Source: an uncultured cyanobacterium (GTDB lineage Bacteria > Cyanobacteriota > Cyanobacteriia > CAKZMO01). From it: a stretch of DNA of 64,000 nucleotides. The stretch spans positions 96,001 through 160,000 of the forward strand of contig CAVRCJ010000011.1 in assembly GCA_963719515.1 (NCBI GenBank), given 5' to 3'. The translations under genes and the position numbers were made by a program. The notes under the pieces were generated by a model that saw only the letters and a list, made by a program, of their open reading frames with translations, was not told the origin of the DNA and ran no database searches. Shown here in pieces: positions 30,151 through 36,712 of this stretch (position 1 is the stretch's first letter; each line of letters begins with the position of its first letter).

Positions 30151-30984
30151 TTATCCCGCTGCCGCCTTAGCCGGAACTTTGGACGTCTTCACATGGGTTG
30201 CCCAGCCCAAAGCTCTAAACAAGCGGATGGTCTGCCAGGTGAGGTCGATTTCCCACCAGCGCGTCCCGGCCTGGGCTGAGGACTGGCAGGCGTGGTGATT
30301 GTTGTGCCAGCCTTCCCCAAACGTCAGCAGCGCCACCCACCAGCAGTTCGTTGAGTGATCAGGGACCTCGTGGCTGCGGTAGCCAAACATGTGGCAGACG
30401 CTATTGACGCAGCAGGTGCTGTGGAATCCAACAAACAGCCGGACGAAGATGCCCCAGACCACAAACGGGAGACCGCCCCATGCGTAAAGCAGAACGGCGA
30501 GCCCGAGCTGTAAGACGATGTATTGTTCGTGGCAAAACTGGTAGAAAGGGTCGTCACTGATGTCACGAATCTGTGACGTCATCTCTTTTCTGGAAGGCAC
30601 CTCGTGCATCAGCCAGGCAATATGGCTCCACCAGAAACCCTGGGTCGAGTCGTGGGGGTCTTGCTGCTGGTCGGTGTGGCGGTGGTGCAAGCGGTGGTAG
30701 CCAACCCAGCCAATGACGCCACCTTGCGCCGCCAAGGTGCCGCAGAGAATTAGGCTGTACTCCAGCCACTTAGGCACGCGCAGGCTGCGGTGGGTGGCAA
30801 GGCGGTGAAACCCCAGCGCGATACCGAGCCCAATGGTGATGCAGTGGAGGGCGATCGCAATGCCGACAGCGCCCCAGCTAAAGGTATTGGGTAAAAAGGC
30901 GAATAGGACACCTGCATGGAGGCCGACGGTGCTGAGAATAACGGACCAGCGTCGGCGAGGCGCGTGAAGCATACCAATGGTCAT
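30151..30984 (-). CDS. Delta-9-type (DesC-like) fatty acid desaturase
   Basis: His boxes HRLATH, HRLHH, GEGWHNNHH; WWEID. Confidence 0.92.
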   Translation of the reverse strand: MTIGMLHAPRRRWSVILSTVGLHAGVLFAFLPNTFSWGAVGIAIALHCITIGLGIALGFHRLATHRSLRVPKWLEYSLILCGTLAAQGGVIGWVGYHRLHHRHTDQQQDPHDSTQGFWWSHIAWLMHEVPSRKEMTSQIRDISDDPFYQFCHEQYIVLQLGLAVLLYAWGGLPFVVWGIFVRLFVGFHSTCCVNSVCHMFGYRSHEVPDHSTNCWWVALLTFGEGWHNNHHACQSSAQAGTRWWEIDLTWQTIRLFRALGWATHVKTSKVPAKAAAG

Positions 30985-31572
30985 GTAAACAGGATCCTAA
31001 GAATGGGCCAAAATTCAAGCTTTAGCCTAACTGACAGATTAATAGATTGGCTGTTTCAGCTTTCCGCAGCGAATCATCTACCTAAAGAATGAAGTTTTAA
31101 GCACGCGCATCTTAAGAAAAGTAAATTTAATAGCCTTCTTATTAAAGCAGTCTTTGCAGTGCTTGGCGTCTTTGATACAGAATTTCTATGCACTTCGACA
31201 AATTGCTTAGTACATTCTTGCTAGGCGCGATCGCAAGTGATTGAGCTGGATCGCGAGTGGACTGCTCTTGCCGCACCATCTGTGCAGCCTCTTGGGAAAA
31301 GACAGCGGATGGGACTGAGGTGAGGAACTCTTTGTATTCGAGGTCTATTCGCACAGTTACGAGCTAACTTACTCGCAAGGTGCGTACTGGTAAAACAGGT
31401 AAGAGCGACGGATACTTTGCACCGCTGCTTCAACCGTTAAACCGCATAGGCTACGTCAGGCGATCGCCCCGCTTCGCAAACTGCTGCAATCTCTCCCTGT
31501 AGGCGGTCAAAATTAGTGCAAGATGAGACTGTGCGATCGCACAAATTAGCCTTTGGGAGAGCAACTGAGGTG

Positions 31573-32190
31573 ATGAAACAACTACGGGCCTTGGGGCTTG
31601 CCGCCGTGCTGCTGAGCGTCCTGCTCGCTGTGGCTCGGCCCGCGATCGCGGCTGAGGCGTCTCGTGCAGCTGTGGCTGAGGCATCGCCGGGAGAGTCTGC
31701 TATAGATGAACCGGCCCCCACCAACGCCCCGCCCAGCGCAAAACCGCTGCCCGACAGCGCAGCAGTTTTGCGCCCGCCCGCGCTGCCAGAAACCGCCAGG
31801 TTGCCCAAACCCAAAACCTACTTTTTGCAGGTGATGGCGGGCAGTCCAAAGCGTCAAATCACCCTCGACCCGCCCGCGACGAAGCTCGTAGTCACAGTTG
31901 AGGCCGGAGAGGCAGCCCTACGCTGCGGCGTTGACTCTAAAGGGCCGGTCAAGGGCAATGGTCAAAAACCGGCCCCTAAGAACCGTCGCCTACAGGCCTA
32001 CAGCTGCGTCTTGGGAAAACCCCTCACCATTGAGCGAGACTCAGACAACGCCATTGGCCGCTTTTGGGTGCAAGATTTATCTGACGTCAGCGACGTTCGC
32101 CTCCGGCTAGAGAGCTATTCTGGGGGGCCAGCAGGGGCGATTAAAGATCTCCCTTTAGTCTCTCCTCGTGAACGACCGGCAGTCCGCTGA
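31573..32190 (+). CDS. Hypothetical secreted protein
   Basis: ATG 31573 after GAGGT; signal peptide MKQLRALGLAAVLLSVLLAVARPAIA; Pro/Ala linker; 3' end overlaps the convergent GH3 gene. Confidence 0.55.
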   Translation: MKQLRALGLAAVLLSVLLAVARPAIAAEASRAAVAEASPGESAIDEPAPTNAPPSAKPLPDSAAVLRPPALPETARLPKPKTYFLQVMAGSPKRQITLDPPATKLVVTVEAGEAALRCGVDSKGPVKGNGQKPAPKNRRLQAYSCVLGKPLTIERDSDNAIGRFWVQDLSDVSDVRLRLESYSGGPAGAIKDLPLVSPRERPAVR

Positions 32191-33823
32191 GCCATTCCCT
32201 ATCCTCACTGACGTGGGGAAACTTCAGCTGAGCTTCAGTGATGCCGGTTTGAACCATCTGCACTCGAAGCTGCTCGAAGCTCCCGGCGGCAAGAATGCGG
32301 AGGCGGGGGGAGGGAATTTGGTCGCGCCGCTTGATGCCGTAAAACTTCTGCACGCTTTTCATGGTCTCGTCAAACTGCTGCAAAAATTGCTGTGGATCAG
32401 ACAGCTGTGACCCTGCGGCCACCTCGACATTGACTAGATAGTGGGCCGGAATGGCGTCTTTTGACAGGGTAATGCAAAAATTTTCGAGGTCTACGTCAAG
32501 CCGCCGCTGCAGCTGCTGAATCACCTCAACCACGTGGGCCTCTGTCGTTTTCTCGGTCGATGAGGAGATCACCCTGCCCCGCCGATATCTGAACGTCATC
32601 AGGGGAGCTTGCTCAAAAAAGCCGTCAATTTCAACCACATCGCCCAAATCGTAGCGGTAGAAGCCGCTGTAATTGGTGAAGACGACTCGGTACTGCTGAC
32701 CGGACCGGACCTCGTGGGGGAGAACCGTCTTGGGGGATTCAGCCTCCCACTGCTCTACGGGGATAAACTCCACAAAAGCGCTTTCGATAGCCGGGATAAC
32801 GCTATCGGTGTCGAAGTCGTGAGAAATGCCAAGAGCACCTTCGGCGCAGGAATAGGTGCCGCCGAACACGGGCAGATCACCAAAATACTCGGAGAATTTC
32901 TCGAAGTAGAAGTCTGAGGTGCCGCCCCGGGCCGTAACCATAAACGACAGGTCAGGCCAGGCCCGCTGAGGCGTGAGTCGGCCATCCGCGCTCAGCACTT
33001 GCTGCAGCTCGGTAGCGCGCTGAGGGGCCGCCGACCATTTTTGCTCTAGACGACGCCTCAGCTCGGGTTCGAGCATTATCCAATCTGCAATCTTTCCCGT
33101 CTTGATGTCTTGAATCATGGAGTCTGCGTGGGTCTCAAGAAACTGACACAGCTGCAGCGCCAGCACCGGGAAGGTGGCCCCAATAGTGCGCAGCCGCCGG
33201 TTGCGCAGCGAAAACAGCAGGCAAACGTAATAGCGGGCTGTAGTTTCTGCGATCTGGAAGGCTTCGAAGGGGTAGGCGAAGATTTGCCGGGACAAAGCGT
33301 CCATCAGCCGCATATCGCTTGTGCTCACGGGGGCAAATTCGATTCCGCTCGGCGTTTGTCCGTGAGACTGAGTGGAGATGGGAAACAGCATCTGCCCGGG
33401 CGGTCGCTTTGCTCGGGCGGCGGCGCCAAAGACGAACCCGACTGCGGCCCGGTTAGCACGAGAGAGGTGGCGGCGCGATCGCTTAGTCACCGGGATCAAT
33501 TTCTTCTTCCCGGTGGACCCGCTGCTGATGTTGAAGTAAATCAGCGGATCGGGAACGAGAACGTTGGGTTCGCCTTCAGCCATGCGCTGGATGTAGGGCT
33601 CGAAGGTGCGGTACGGCTGCACCGGAATCCGCTCGCGGAACTGAGCCACGGTGCTGATGTCGGCTAGGCCATGGTCACGGCCAAACGCCGTGTCTTTGTG
33701 GGCCTCCAAAAGCGATCGCAAAAATTCTTCCTGTGCCGCTTCTAGATGCCCCAATTTTTTGACGAGCTTTCTCCTAGACCGCAGCGCGACGGCCGACAGC
33801 GCCGAGAACATCAAATTTTGCAA
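32141..33823 (-). CDS. GH3-family acyl-acid amido synthetase (start TTG 33823 or ATG 33811)
   Basis: SSGSTGKKKLIP, TYSCAEG, YRYDLGD adenylate-forming GH3 motifs; overlaps the cysteate synthase stop. Confidence 0.9.
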   Translation of the reverse strand: MQNLMFSALSAVALRSRRKLVKKLGHLEAAQEEFLRSLLEAHKDTAFGRDHGLADISTVAQFRERIPVQPYRTFEPYIQRMAEGEPNVLVPDPLIYFNISSGSTGKKKLIPVTKRSRRHLSRANRAAVGFVFGAAARAKRPPGQMLFPISTQSHGQTPSGIEFAPVSTSDMRLMDALSRQIFAYPFEAFQIAETTARYYVCLLFSLRNRRLRTIGATFPVLALQLCQFLETHADSMIQDIKTGKIADWIMLEPELRRRLEQKWSAAPQRATELQQVLSADGRLTPQRAWPDLSFMVTARGGTSDFYFEKFSEYFGDLPVFGGTYSCAEGALGISHDFDTDSVIPAIESAFVEFIPVEQWEAESPKTVLPHEVRSGQQYRVVFTNYSGFYRYDLGDVVEIDGFFEQAPLMTFRYRRGRVISSSTEKTTEAHVVEVIQQLQRRLDVDLENFCITLSKDAIPAHYLVNVEVAAGSQLSDPQQFLQQFDETMKSVQKFYGIKRRDQIPSPRLRILAAGSFEQLRVQMVQTGITEAQLKFPHVSEDREWLSGLPVVHEERLKGDL

Positions 33824-35133
33824 AGGTCTCTCCCCATCCGTTCTTTGACAACATCTGCTCGAATCTCGCTGGGCGAAAAGGTCAGTGAAGGCCGGAGGTG
33901 ATGCAAGCAATAGTCTTGCCTGAGCCTATCGATACCGCCACTGGTGATATTGAGCAAAACACTGTCGCCGCGCTCAATTTTTTGGGTCGCGACCGCCTGC
34001 TGAAGCGCGGCGACGGCAACCCCCGACGCCGGGCTAATGTCGATTCCCTCGAGCGCCCGGAAGAGGCGCTGAGCCAAGGCCGCTGCGTCATTTCTCACCC
34101 CATATAGGTGTCCCCTCGTGGCCTTCAGCGCGTCGTATACGCCGCCCTTGAGGGCGTAGGCCGGGCTGCGGTTGGTGAGCACTTTTGCCGCGACGCCTTC
34201 AATCTGCTTTTTTGCGGCGGCTTCACTGACGGGAGCAAGCTGGCGATCGCCCGCAGCCCAGGCGTTTACCATCGGCGCAAACGGTAGGTTCTGAGCGAGA
34301 TGCAGCGTCATCCGGCGCGTCCCAAAGCGGCCATCCTGCAGCAGGCGTAAATTGGCCTCCCAGGCGGAAATGCCCCCTGTGCCCGAGCCCACGGCTTGGA
34401 TATAGTGATCAGGGATATGCCCCAGGGTCACGGCGGCGTCAACGACGGTGAGCCCCATACCGTCGCGCCGCCCCACGTTGGCAGCCCCCCCTTCCGGGAA
34501 GTATCCGTCTAGCTGGCTGATCAGCTGCGCTAGGGCGATCGCATCGGAATAGTCGCCGCCCCCCGCCACAACAACCAGCCGTACGCAGGGGTGGAAGGGG
34601 GCTTGCGACCAGATGGCCTGTAGATTCTGCTCTGGAAGCACTAAGCACAGGGGGATCTCTAAGGCGGAGCAAAGCGTCGCAAACGCGCGGCCCGTATTGC
34701 CAGCGGAGGCCAGTACGAGGGTTCGCGGATGGTCTTTGGGGATACGGGCAAGGACAGCGGGGGCCTCTAGCTCTTTGAAGGAGCCTGTCGTGAGGGAAGC
34801 ATCGCGCTCGGGCCAGTAGCCGTTGAAGCTGATGTACAGATGCTCCAGCCCCAGATACTGCCCCAGCCGAGTACCCTTGTAGGTAATAGGCTTACCCGAA
34901 ACGTCAAGCCAGCGCTCTACGGGAAGCCAGTCGCTAAACTGAAAGACGCCGGGCAGATGAGGATTGACCGTAAGGGCAGTAGCGCGGTAGACGGCCCTTA
35001 AAAGCGCTGGCTCATGGGGAACAGTGCACTTGAGTTGAAATGGATTTGCGCTGTATTCAGCCCCGCACAGCGTACATTGAAGGGTATAGTGAGGCGGTTT
35101 AGCGTTCAAGGACTCTAATCGAACCCTGCCCAT
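33811..35133 (-). CDS. Cysteate synthase (PLP-dependent, threonine synthase-like)
   Basis: CxxC N-terminus, FNGYWPER, GSFKELEA (PLP Lys), ASAGNT, EGGAANVGRRDGMG, QAVGSGTG, DGRFG, EGIDI, LLNIT. Confidence 0.88.
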   Translation of the reverse strand: MGRVRLESLNAKPPHYTLQCTLCGAEYSANPFQLKCTVPHEPALLRAVYRATALTVNPHLPGVFQFSDWLPVERWLDVSGKPITYKGTRLGQYLGLEHLYISFNGYWPERDASLTTGSFKELEAPAVLARIPKDHPRTLVLASAGNTGRAFATLCSALEIPLCLVLPEQNLQAIWSQAPFHPCVRLVVVAGGGDYSDAIALAQLISQLDGYFPEGGAANVGRRDGMGLTVVDAAVTLGHIPDHYIQAVGSGTGGISAWEANLRLLQDGRFGTRRMTLHLAQNLPFAPMVNAWAAGDRQLAPVSEAAAKKQIEGVAAKVLTNRSPAYALKGGVYDALKATRGHLYGVRNDAAALAQRLFRALEGIDISPASGVAVAALQQAVATQKIERGDSVLLNITSGGIDRLRQDYCLHHLRPSLTFSPSEIRADVVKERMGRDLCKI

Positions 35134-35241: not shown

Positions 35242-36712
35242 TTAGCTAATTCGTGAAAGCCCCGCGCTGTATGCGCAGCATCAGCGTCGGGATGCAAGCG
35301 AGCGAGTCGCAGACGAGCAATTCTAGGGAGTAACACAACCCCTCCTAAATCTTGCTATAATTGGTACATGCTTACCTTGAACTACTCCTACCGAATCTAT
35401 CCAAGCCTTGAGCAGGAAGCCCGCATGGTGACGTGGCTTGAGACCTGTCGCGGCGTCTACAATTACGCCCTGAGGGAGCGCAAGGACTGGATAAAGTCGA
35501 GAAGCTGTCAGCTCAACGCTTGCTCGCTGCAATCGGAGTACATCATTCCAGCAGACGCGTCTTACCCCAGCTACTACGCTCAAAAGCGATCGCTGACCGC
35601 TGCCAAAAAGCAGTTGCCGCATCTCAAGGACGTGCAATCCCAGGTGCTTCAGGACGTGATAGGACGGGTGGAATCGGCGTTTGCTGCCAGGAAGGAGCGA
35701 GGTCACGGTTTCCCACGCTTTAAGAAGTTTGGGCAGTATCGCTCGTTTCTCTTTCCGCAGTTCAAGGAAAACCCGGTGACGGGTAGCCAAATCAAGCTGC
35801 CAAAGCTGGGAGAGATGCGCATTGTGCTGCATCGTCCCATCCCTGATGGGTTTGCTGTGAAGACGGTGCGCATCATCAAGAAGCATTCGGGGTGGTACGC
35901 TACCCTTTGCATTCAAGCCGATGTCAACGTGCCTGATGCTGTTCCTAGTGGGGCAAGTGTTGGGATTGATGTTGGGCTTGAGTATTTCCTGTCCACTTCC
36001 AACGGTTTGCAGGTCAAGCGACCTCGCTTTTCGGGTAAGCTGCACCGCAAGCTTGAATTGACGAGCGACCCCGCGCCGTCGCACGGCGCTAGGGAACGCG
36101 CGAGTTGCTGCAACGCAGGCTGAAGAACAAGCAAAAGGGGTCGAATAACCGCGCCAAGCTGATACGGAGGATTGGACGGGTGCATGAGCAGATAGCAGCC
36201 TGTCGCCTTGACTGGCAATTCAAGCTGGCCCATAAGCTCTGTGACTATGCCCAGATGATATTTGTGGAAGACATCGACTTCCGCATCATGGCAAAAGGGA
36301 TGCTGGGTAAGCACACCCTGGATGCTGGTCTGGGGCAGTTCGTCAACCAGGTGCTGCCATGGGTGTGCTTCAAGCGTGGTGTCTACTACGGCAAGGTTGA
36401 CCCCTACCGCACCTCTCAGGAATGCCCTGATTGTGGTGCTGCGGTCAAAAAGTCGCTGAGTGATAGGGTTCATCAGTGTCATAGCTGTGGGTCGGTCAAG
36501 CCGAGAGATATAGCTGCTGCCCAAGTCATCAACGCCCGTGGTCTTTCGGGTGTTCAAATTGTCTGTGGAGCCGAGGTAGCGGGGATGTGGGAAACCATAT
36601 CTAGCCAACTGGCTGTGTTCGCGCAGCGTGCGTGTAACGCGAAGCAGGAAACTCATCGGGCGACCGATGAAGCCCGCGCTCTATCCGTAGGATGAGCGTC
36701 GGGAGTATTCAC
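35242..36712 (+). mobile_element. IS200/IS605-family tnpB-only (IS1341-like) element
   Basis: TTAG at 35242-35245, left hairpin AAGCCCCGCGCT..AGCGTCGGGA, tnpB, right hairpin GAAGCCCGCGCT..AGCGTCGGGAG ending TCAC. Confidence 0.9.
35368..36695 (+). pseudogene. tnpB: RNA-guided endonuclease TnpB, frameshifted by a 47-nt insertion (36061-36107)
   Basis: YSYRIYP, GFPRFK, GIDVG, IFVED, CPDC/CHSC, RDIAAA; removing the insert restores KLELLQRRLK; TGnTATAAT 6 nt before the ATG (leaderless). Confidence 0.92.

Follow-up and report, generated by a model that had tools for sequence, protein, structure and literature searches.

Cysteate is an established lipid precursor in the capnine pathway of Bacteroidota, where a cysteate synthase makes it from phosphoserine and sulfite and a cysteate acyltransferase (CFAT; SulA or CapB) and a ketocapnine reductase act next (PMC9304779, PMC13692747). 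The same cysteate synthase family serves, with ComDE, the coenzyme M route of Methanosarcinales. GH3 enzymes, for their part, adenylate a carboxylic acid with ATP and then form an amide with an amino acid. The plant enzymes AtGH3.5, AtGH3.6 and VvGH3-1 use as amine aspartate, whose sulfonate analogue is cysteate. A bacterial member, OlsH of Singulisphaera acidiphila, is proposed to join a fatty acid to ornithine with ATP, giving N-acyl-ornithine; it did not acylate glutamate, glutamine or glycine, and other bacterial GH3s are predicted, with no examples, to acylate different amino acids (PMC12493201). Here we describe a 64,000-nucleotide stretch from an uncultured cyanobacterium (assembly GCA_963719515.1, contig CAVRCJ010000011.1, positions 96,001 to 160,000; the window), in which the gene of a cysteate synthase runs directly into that of a GH3 amido synthetase. 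A GH3-dependent route to a bacterial amino-lipid is already published as OlsH, and the literature points to the cysteate synthase–GH3 pair being undescribed: in searches that mostly did not extend to subscription journals, we found no paper joining the two enzymes, and cysteate synthase appeared together with cyanobacteria only in a reference list.

The TGA of the cysteate synthase gene (33811-33813) and the ATG of the GH3 gene have one base in common, in the string TGATG. This overlap had already been reported in an earlier account of the DNA based on its letters only (the sequence-only reading), and by this arrangement GH3 is translationally coupled to the cysteate synthase. G+C content is 0.60 for the cysteate synthase gene and 0.58 for the GH3 gene, similar to core genes nearby. 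The source genome comprises 5.28 Mb in 21 contigs and is 100% complete by markers; among named relatives, the nearest carry the label Elainellaceae cyanobacteria.

By curated model, the first enzyme of the pair is a cysteate synthase. This pyridoxal phosphate (PLP)-dependent protein scored 491.1 bits on TIGR03844 (cut-off 324.9), compared with 31 bits on the thrC model (cut-off 167.1) and 73 on PRK08197 (cut-off 303), and it gave an ungapped full-length match over residues 13-429 to the solved cysteate synthase PDB 9k3c (E=7e-127). C20, C23 and C36 of the N-terminal Cys cluster and K120, which we take to be the PLP lysine, were invariant in a 13-sequence alignment. Enzymes of this family convert phosphoserine and sulfite to L-cysteate. 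The sequence-only reading was therefore right to prefer cysteate synthase over threonine synthase, an identity that we rejected on the thrC score and because two other genes of the genome exceed the thrC cut-off. A coenzyme M route was likewise rejected, since ComD (TIGR03845) had no match in this genome; as a further difference from that route, none of 74 archaeal or Nitrospirota cysteate synthase loci contained a GH3. It is very improbable, in our view, that the enzyme has drifted to another nucleophile or to a homoserine-phosphate substrate, so that GH3 would acylate a different substituted amino acid. The window protein is only 36–54% identical to archaeal members, the family is reportedly derived from threonine synthase (to go by the title of Graham 2009), and in one relative (G074, L267:5093-8006) a threonine-synthase-like paralogue lies convergent with a GH3 gene. 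Yet the TIGR03844 margin and the ungapped match to 9k3c speak for cysteate synthesis, as do sulfonate-type neighbours (TauD-like, CuyB-like) at related loci. The G074 paralogue itself, at 175 bits on thrC and 101 bits on the cysteate synthase model, is possibly another amine-making partner.

The second enzyme has the Pfam GH3 N-terminal, middle and C-terminal domains at 266, 83 and 69 bits. Residues 96-104, 320-324 and 383-391 align with the three plant nucleotide-binding motifs as listed in PMC12493201, motifs that it also has in common with OlsH, and the C-terminal lysine K530 was invariant among 120 homologues. Plant GH3s were the top Foldseek matches of the predicted structure (predicted local distance difference test score 89; template modelling (TM) scores 0.83-0.89), and also the best sequence matches among solved structures (profile E=4e-57, full-length alignment), at ~22-24% identity. 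On the OlsH model NF052613 the protein reached 111.8 bits against a cut-off of 620. The cyanobacterial GH3 clade as a whole aligns far better with plant GH3s than with this model. OlsH is partnered by an alpha/beta-hydrolase O-acyltransferase (OlsI) or an N-methyltransferase, whereas the partner here would supply an anionic, sulfonated amine, and the cyanobacterial GH3s track a ceramide-type gene set. We detected no OlsI-type alpha/beta-hydrolase among those neighbours of the window pair and of other adjacent pairs that were scanned; this covered part of the neighbours, and the genome was not searched for OlsI. By analogy, the GH3 most likely works like OlsH without being an OlsH.

The side chain of aspartate is held in AtGH3.6 by Arg117, Lys160 and Ser455 (PMC12369477). 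Mapped by hand through a distant alignment, these positions fall on Lys103, Gln148 and Thr419 of the window GH3, so that two of the three ligands have a basic or hydroxyl counterpart, as is often the case in unlinked GH3s too, while Lys160 is replaced by Gln or Asn in the cyanobacterial proteins. The GH3s adjacent to cysteate synthase have residues of their own around 160-169, 213 and 220, a stretch lining up with Leu175-Thr176 of AtGH3.6, two residues that touch the carboxyl of the amino acid. Contig C1 of the source genome bears another GH3 gene (C1:9605-11284), whose product has 54% identity to the first and which has no cysteate synthase beside it. Such a second close GH3 occurs in 9 of 13 adjacent-pair genomes and is absent from G443, G461, G406 and G416.

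The adjacency is not peculiar to this genome, a possibility that the sequence-only reading had raised against itself. We inspected the genes around 28 further cyanobacterial copies of cysteate synthase. Seventeen have GH3 within about 2 kb, and in 12 of these it is the immediate downstream gene, co-oriented, with gaps of 6-305 nt; the 12 span at least four families, and their flanking genes change from lineage to lineage. One of the carriers of the pair is a cultured strain, Vasconcelosia minhoensis LEGE 07310 (L003). The looser arrangements are varied. An Asp/Glu-family racemase separates the two genes in G632, and a racemase of this family together with a methyltransferase does so in G250, where the best model for the racemase is the cysteate racemase CuyB (124 bits, below the cut-off of 190). 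G248 has a DedA gene between the pair and a PLP decarboxylase behind GH3, the latter sharing 54-57% identity with decarboxylases that adjoin cysteate synthases lacking a GH3. In G532 GH3 lies upstream of the cysteate synthase with two hydroxylase genes in between, and in G662 the two genes are convergent.

These counts stand on a sparse background: cysteate synthase was found in 4 of 401 sampled genomes of the phylum, 11 of 61 relatives, 7 of 17 genomes of the same order and 17 of 401 genomes of another order. As a proxy for co-location we compared the top 120 database hits for each protein and scored identical size of the longest contig, the DNA itself not being read. By this measure 41 of the hits matched, against 0.64 expected after jittering; on contigs of at least 3.1 kb, matches comprised 36 of 53 GH3 hits at ranks 1-60 and 4 of 43 at ranks 61-120. 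No GH3 was seen in 80 metagenome cysteate synthase loci (36-54% identity; many of them short). The association of cysteate synthase with GH3 is more than chance.

Quick trees without bootstrap were built for both proteins (51 rows for GH3, not including G404, whose gene is cut by a contig end; each approximately unbiased (AU) test was run minus one long row). The 12 directly adjacent GH3s and the GH3 of G346 formed one subclade of 13 rows (SH-aLRT 99), and the five other linked GH3s were scattered. The adjacent cysteate synthases likewise formed a clade (98), nested in a larger cyanobacterial clade that takes in the type found in genus g216; a second cyanobacterial clade contained the other five linked copies. 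Groupings of adjacent pairs broadly match between the two trees, indicating that the adjacent pair is long co-inherited. Monophyly was rejected for the linked GH3s (p-AU 4e-58) and for the linked cysteate synthases (6e-5), and was not rejected for all cyanobacterial cysteate synthases together (p-AU 0.65). The data are thus compatible with a single origin or several origins of the wider link. Independent recruitment of cysteate synthase to GH3 is not shown, as all cyanobacterial copies may be one clade. G346, the one member of the GH3 subclade whose genome gave no match to cysteate synthase, has a GH3 gene with a frameshift in a poly-A run towards the C-terminal end (L247:5200-5400), which may reflect decay or a sequencing error.

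The company of the GH3 genes bears on the acid substrate. Close-clade GH3s, defined by E below 1e-160 (27 more genomes with distant GH3s only were left uncounted), are rare, occurring in 24 of the 401 sampled genomes. An oxoamine synthase resembling serine palmitoyltransferase (SPT) is present in 28 genomes of the sample, all 24 with a close GH3 among them, and in each of the 17 close-GH3 genomes among 25 further genomes chosen for cysteate synthase, making 41 of 41. Across 46 genomes with the SPT-like synthase, a GNAT protein is found in 45, a fatty acid hydroxylase in 44 and an MFS transporter in 43; none of the three is found in eight control genomes lacking the synthase. We rejected the fatty acid hydroxylase and the MFS transporter as GH3-specific partners, since both track the synthase and not GH3. 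Among 26 GH3 loci without cysteate synthase, many have genes for one or more of the following: SPT-like synthase, Rieske oxygenase, MFS transporter, OlsC-like hydroxylase, fatty acid hydroxylase, Mpo1-like protein, amidohydrolase and PlsC-like acyltransferase. A GDSL lipase also occurs among GH3 neighbours, and at locus L237 GH3 sits together with an SPT-like cassette.

In the source genome the SPT-like synthase scored below all SPT cut-offs (172.7/640, 167.2/500 and 112.9/670 bits), and the GNAT protein, whose Atlas features resemble GNAT clusters (0.99), matched neither a curated model nor a PDB entry. The best match of the Rieske oxygenase was SdmA (245 bits versus 600), an enzyme of methyl-to-carboxyl chemistry. 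The gene set would make a ceramide-type lipid. Its SPT-like synthase, large GNAT-type protein and NAD-dependent reductase, the last two being putative counterparts of bCerS and CerR, co-occur and are often clustered, which recalls the Spt-bCerS-CerR pathway of Caulobacter (PMC11087976); the cyanobacterial set differs from it in a synthase under the SPT cut-offs and in the additional GH3, Rieske, hydroxylase and MFS genes. According to PMC8895605, Nostoc punctiforme, whose sole oxoamine synthase is BioF-like, has no sphingolipids, and ceramides in two other cyanobacteria are cited there. In genus g4 (L258:5171-7800 in G328; L261; L271) a PlsC-like acyltransferase lies directly upstream of GH3, an arrangement reminiscent of an acyloxyacyl amino-lipid pair.

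Cysteate could enter such a set in two ways. In the first, it feeds the SPT-like synthase and yields a Bacteroidota-type sulfonolipid, with GH3 playing a side part in fatty acid activation or long-chain-base acylation. The source genome does contain an oxoamine synthase, an acyltransferase and a reductase, as the capnine pathway does; the SPT-like synthase is present in 18 of 18 linked-pair genomes, and the GNAT protein in 16 of 17 relatives and in the source genome. In G662, moreover, cysteate synthase and GH3 stand beside synthase, GNAT, reductase and Rieske genes, and SPT is reported to go together with an acyl-activating enzyme in Rhodobacteria (PMC9386255). Known cysteate acyltransferases, however, carry a lysine 30 residues past the Schiff-base lysine (Lys281/Lys280; PMC9304779; PMC13692747). 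At this position, mapped by spacing and motif and not by structure, 29 of 29 cyanobacterial synthases have Ile, Val or Cys (Ile in the source genome), with like residues in the 5 genomes with cysteate synthase and the 24 without. Furthermore, 24 of the 28 synthase genomes of the sample have no cysteate synthase, cysteate synthase lies beside GH3 in 18 loci and beside the SPT-like synthase in one, and a racemase or decarboxylase would take away the condensing enzyme's substrate. We consider the capnine route unlikely; judged by the one testable marker, this would not be the capnine pathway. Because the synthases lack the acyltransferase lysine, cysteate probably goes to GH3 instead.

Taken together, the physical link to GH3, the variants with a racemase or decarboxylase and the missing lysine favour cysteate as the amine of GH3. 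On balance, we think it somewhat probable that GH3 amidates a lipid carboxylate with cysteate, giving a sulfonated N-acyl amino-lipid. On this reading, the two genes would extend an existing lipid pathway of cyanobacteria. Cysteate synthase would make cysteate by its established family chemistry. GH3, again by family chemistry, would adenylate a carboxylic acid with ATP and use it to acylate the amino group of cysteate, and the resulting N-acyl-cysteate amide would retain the cysteate carboxyl, in contrast to the decarboxylative carbon–carbon bond of capnine. As judged from co-occurrence, the acid would be a lipid tied to the SPT-like synthase, GNAT, reductase and hydroxylase set. It is possibly a fatty acid, either free or hydroxy, on the precedent of OlsH, or, with slightly less likelihood, a carboxyl-bearing product of the ceramide-type pathway to which cysteate is added as head group. 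GH3 paralogues without a cysteate synthase would take an ordinary amino acid as the amine. Other lineages may vary it, using D-cysteate where a racemase lies between the genes and taurine where a decarboxylase follows GH3; L-cysteate is the expected amine here, since the source genome has no close racemase or decarboxylase homologue (none was found for Mpo1 or the amidohydrolase either). An ATP-dependent taurine transferase without a known gene is described for cerilipin (PMC12971839).

Conjugation of cysteate by GH3 to an aromatic or other short acid, producing a signal, storage or export form, would fit the greater closeness of this GH3 to plant GH3s than to the OlsH model and the MFS transporters that often adjoin GH3 genes. 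The neighbours of the GH3 genes are lipid enzymes (OlsC-like, fatty acid hydroxylase, Mpo1-like, PlsC-like, GDSL lipase), a difference from plant GH3s as well, and the family follows the oxoamine synthase throughout; we therefore regard a small-molecule product as rather unlikely. The sequence-only reading had proposed that GH3 ligates cysteate to a fatty or aromatic acid, possibly a desaturated one. Its gene pair proved to be conserved, and the GH3-cysteate amide formed by a non-capnine route stands as the best reading, whereas its link to the desaturase was not supported. It took account neither of OlsH nor of the SPT-like, GNAT and reductase gene set, the latter of which alters the candidate acyl substrate.

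Several observations weigh against the cysteate amide. The genomes are kin, and the co-occurrence counts of GH3 and synthase therefore overstate independence. Only 4 of the 24 close-clade GH3 genomes in the sample carry cysteate synthase. Conversely, 11 of the 28 cysteate synthase loci have no GH3 nearby (six in g216, two beside a nonribosomal peptide synthetase (NRPS), two alone and one, uninformative, on a contig ending 495 nt downstream), and cysteate must thus have other uses. The Lys103 of the putative pocket is found in 12 of 12 adjacent GH3s, but Lys or Arg is also found in 18 of 27 unlinked and 1 of 5 other linked GH3s, a pattern that does not single out GH3s linked to cysteate synthase. 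No O-acyltransferase was seen beside the pair among the neighbours scanned, which were not all of them. Finally, the SdmA-like Rieske orthologue is missing from 8 of 40 genomes with both GH3 and the synthase and present in 5 of 6 with the synthase only, and for this reason the Rieske oxygenase was rejected as a required carboxyl-maker for GH3.

The other uses of cysteate also bear on a reading in which the two genes are merely co-regulated, cysteate being an osmolyte or a taurine precursor and GH3 using another amine. Cysteate has been detected in cyanobacteria, with a role given as unknown and a biosynthesis called unknown in PMC11193023. Six g216 genomes have TauD-like and methyltransferase genes downstream of cysteate synthase and lack a GH3 in the vicinity, and a PLP decarboxylase is present in all five loci long enough to tell; in addition, a single origin of cyanobacterial cysteate synthases is not rejected, so the link may be old inheritance and not repeated recruitment. 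Against this, the overlap is a single base here and the gaps are short in 12 relatives of at least four families with changing flanks, and the source genome lacks a close decarboxylase or racemase. We judge it quite improbable that the two genes are mere passengers, and retain the cysteate amide as the preferred reading.

The GH3-less loci deserve mention in their own right. In g216 (L223:3610-10250 in G575; L222, L224-L226, L229) cysteate synthase, the TauD-like dioxygenase and the methyltransferase converge with one or two small methyltransferases and the PLP decarboxylase, and the locus would suit the synthesis of taurine and its N-methylated form, perhaps as an osmolyte. In G661 (L235:1-13251) and G536 (L236) cysteate synthase is divergent from genes for PhyH, SbnA-like and SbnB-like (diaminopropionate) proteins, an ABC exporter and an NRPS, making this a candidate locus for a peptide with cysteic acid and diaminopropionate. 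In G666 (L232:169-8131) the genes divergent from cysteate synthase encode a P450, a hexapeptide acyltransferase, a DevBC-type exporter and a decarboxylase of the same family; this genome has neither a close GH3 nor an SPT-like synthase.

The remaining genes of the region lie outside the unit (Table 1). The desaturase starts 1157 nt past the GH3 stop on the same strand, much as the sequence-only reading had stated, with the putatively secreted open reading frame (ORF) between them; that ORF, as was left unsaid, is convergent with GH3 on the + strand and shares 50 nt with its 3' end, so GH3 and the desaturase do not form a simple operon. When co-occurrence of the three genes was checked as that reading had proposed, GH3 recurred as described above, whereas none of the 28 further cyanobacterial loci contained a desaturase homologue. 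The same-genus genome G403 carries the orthologue 8.6 kb away from GH3, separated from it by an NRPS, while for G417, G412 and G158 the best match lies on a different contig, so that synteny extends to genus level only. The protein is one of four paralogues (the others at 48, 46 and 36% identity), and its DesC/delta-9 label is presumptive, from size and His boxes. The claimed link of the desaturase to the pathway did not hold: we rejected it as a member, and it is a bystander. The signal-peptide-like ORF had no match in Pfam or NCBIfam scans and an uninformative best Atlas score of 0.78; among the loci compared, its homologue adjoins the pair only in G403.

Just upstream of the cysteate synthase gene, an IS605/TnpB-family gene (window 35368-36695, + strand) occupies two reading frames that overlap (251 aa and 196 aa); it was not seen at the corresponding place in G403. 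In G403, a sulfite exporter of the TauE/SafE type lies upstream of cysteate synthase at a distance of two genes (L001:4342-5133), and downstream of the two paired genes there is a stand-alone NRPS of C-A-T-TE make-up (L243:2318-6604), neither of which is in the window; TauE had no match in the source genome. A promoter and terminator scan of the locus performed no better than chance.

Table 1 Features of the locus (window positions) and of the ceramide-type gene set elsewhere in the source genome (contig:positions)
Feature	Position	Strand	Remarks
Cysteate synthase ORF	33811..35133	-	440 aa; PLP fold type II, threonine-synthase-derived; TIGR03844 match
GH3 amido synthetase ORF	32141..33811	-	556 aa from overlapping ATG; intact; Pfam GH3 domains
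TGATG stop/start overlap, 1 nt	33809..33813	-	joins cysteate synthase and GH3; read from sequence
Signal-peptide-like ORF, 224 aa	31516..32190	+	Pro/Ala-rich linker; outside unit; no family
DesC-like membrane fatty acid desaturase	30151..30984	-	277 aa; Pfam PF00487 FA_desaturase; outside unit
SPT-like synthase, Rieske, MFS and OlsC-like genes	C3:21665-26929		
GNAT and reductase genes	C6:387392-389514		reductase coupled to GNAT
Fatty acid hydroxylase gene	C3:450041-450520		

The cysteate synthase partner would indicate the amine of a GH3 from the genome itself. If the cysteate amide is correct, these cyanobacteria would have a second sulfolipid besides sulfoquinovosyl diacylglycerol, made through neither capnine nor sulfoquinovose, and might use it under phosphate limitation. 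The pair would also be a candidate source of the cysteate found in cyanobacteria, although this would apply to no more than a small percentage of genomes, the gene having been found in 4 of 401 across the phylum and in 17 of 401 of one order. Both enzymes are soluble and easy to assay, and the sulfonate offers a tag (m/z 80) for tracing the product of the lipid set, for which we came across no measured product. More speculatively, and rather doubtful as a whole, cyanobacteria with the SPT-like synthase and GNAT may make a ceramide-type lipid with a free carboxyl on which GH3 paralogues serve as interchangeable head-group ligases, the cysteate synthase–GH3 pair installing L-cysteate, D-cysteate or taurine. 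If so, this would be a phosphorus-free class of sulfonated sphingolipid-amides formed without capnine, and the first case of a GH3 acting on a complex lipid.

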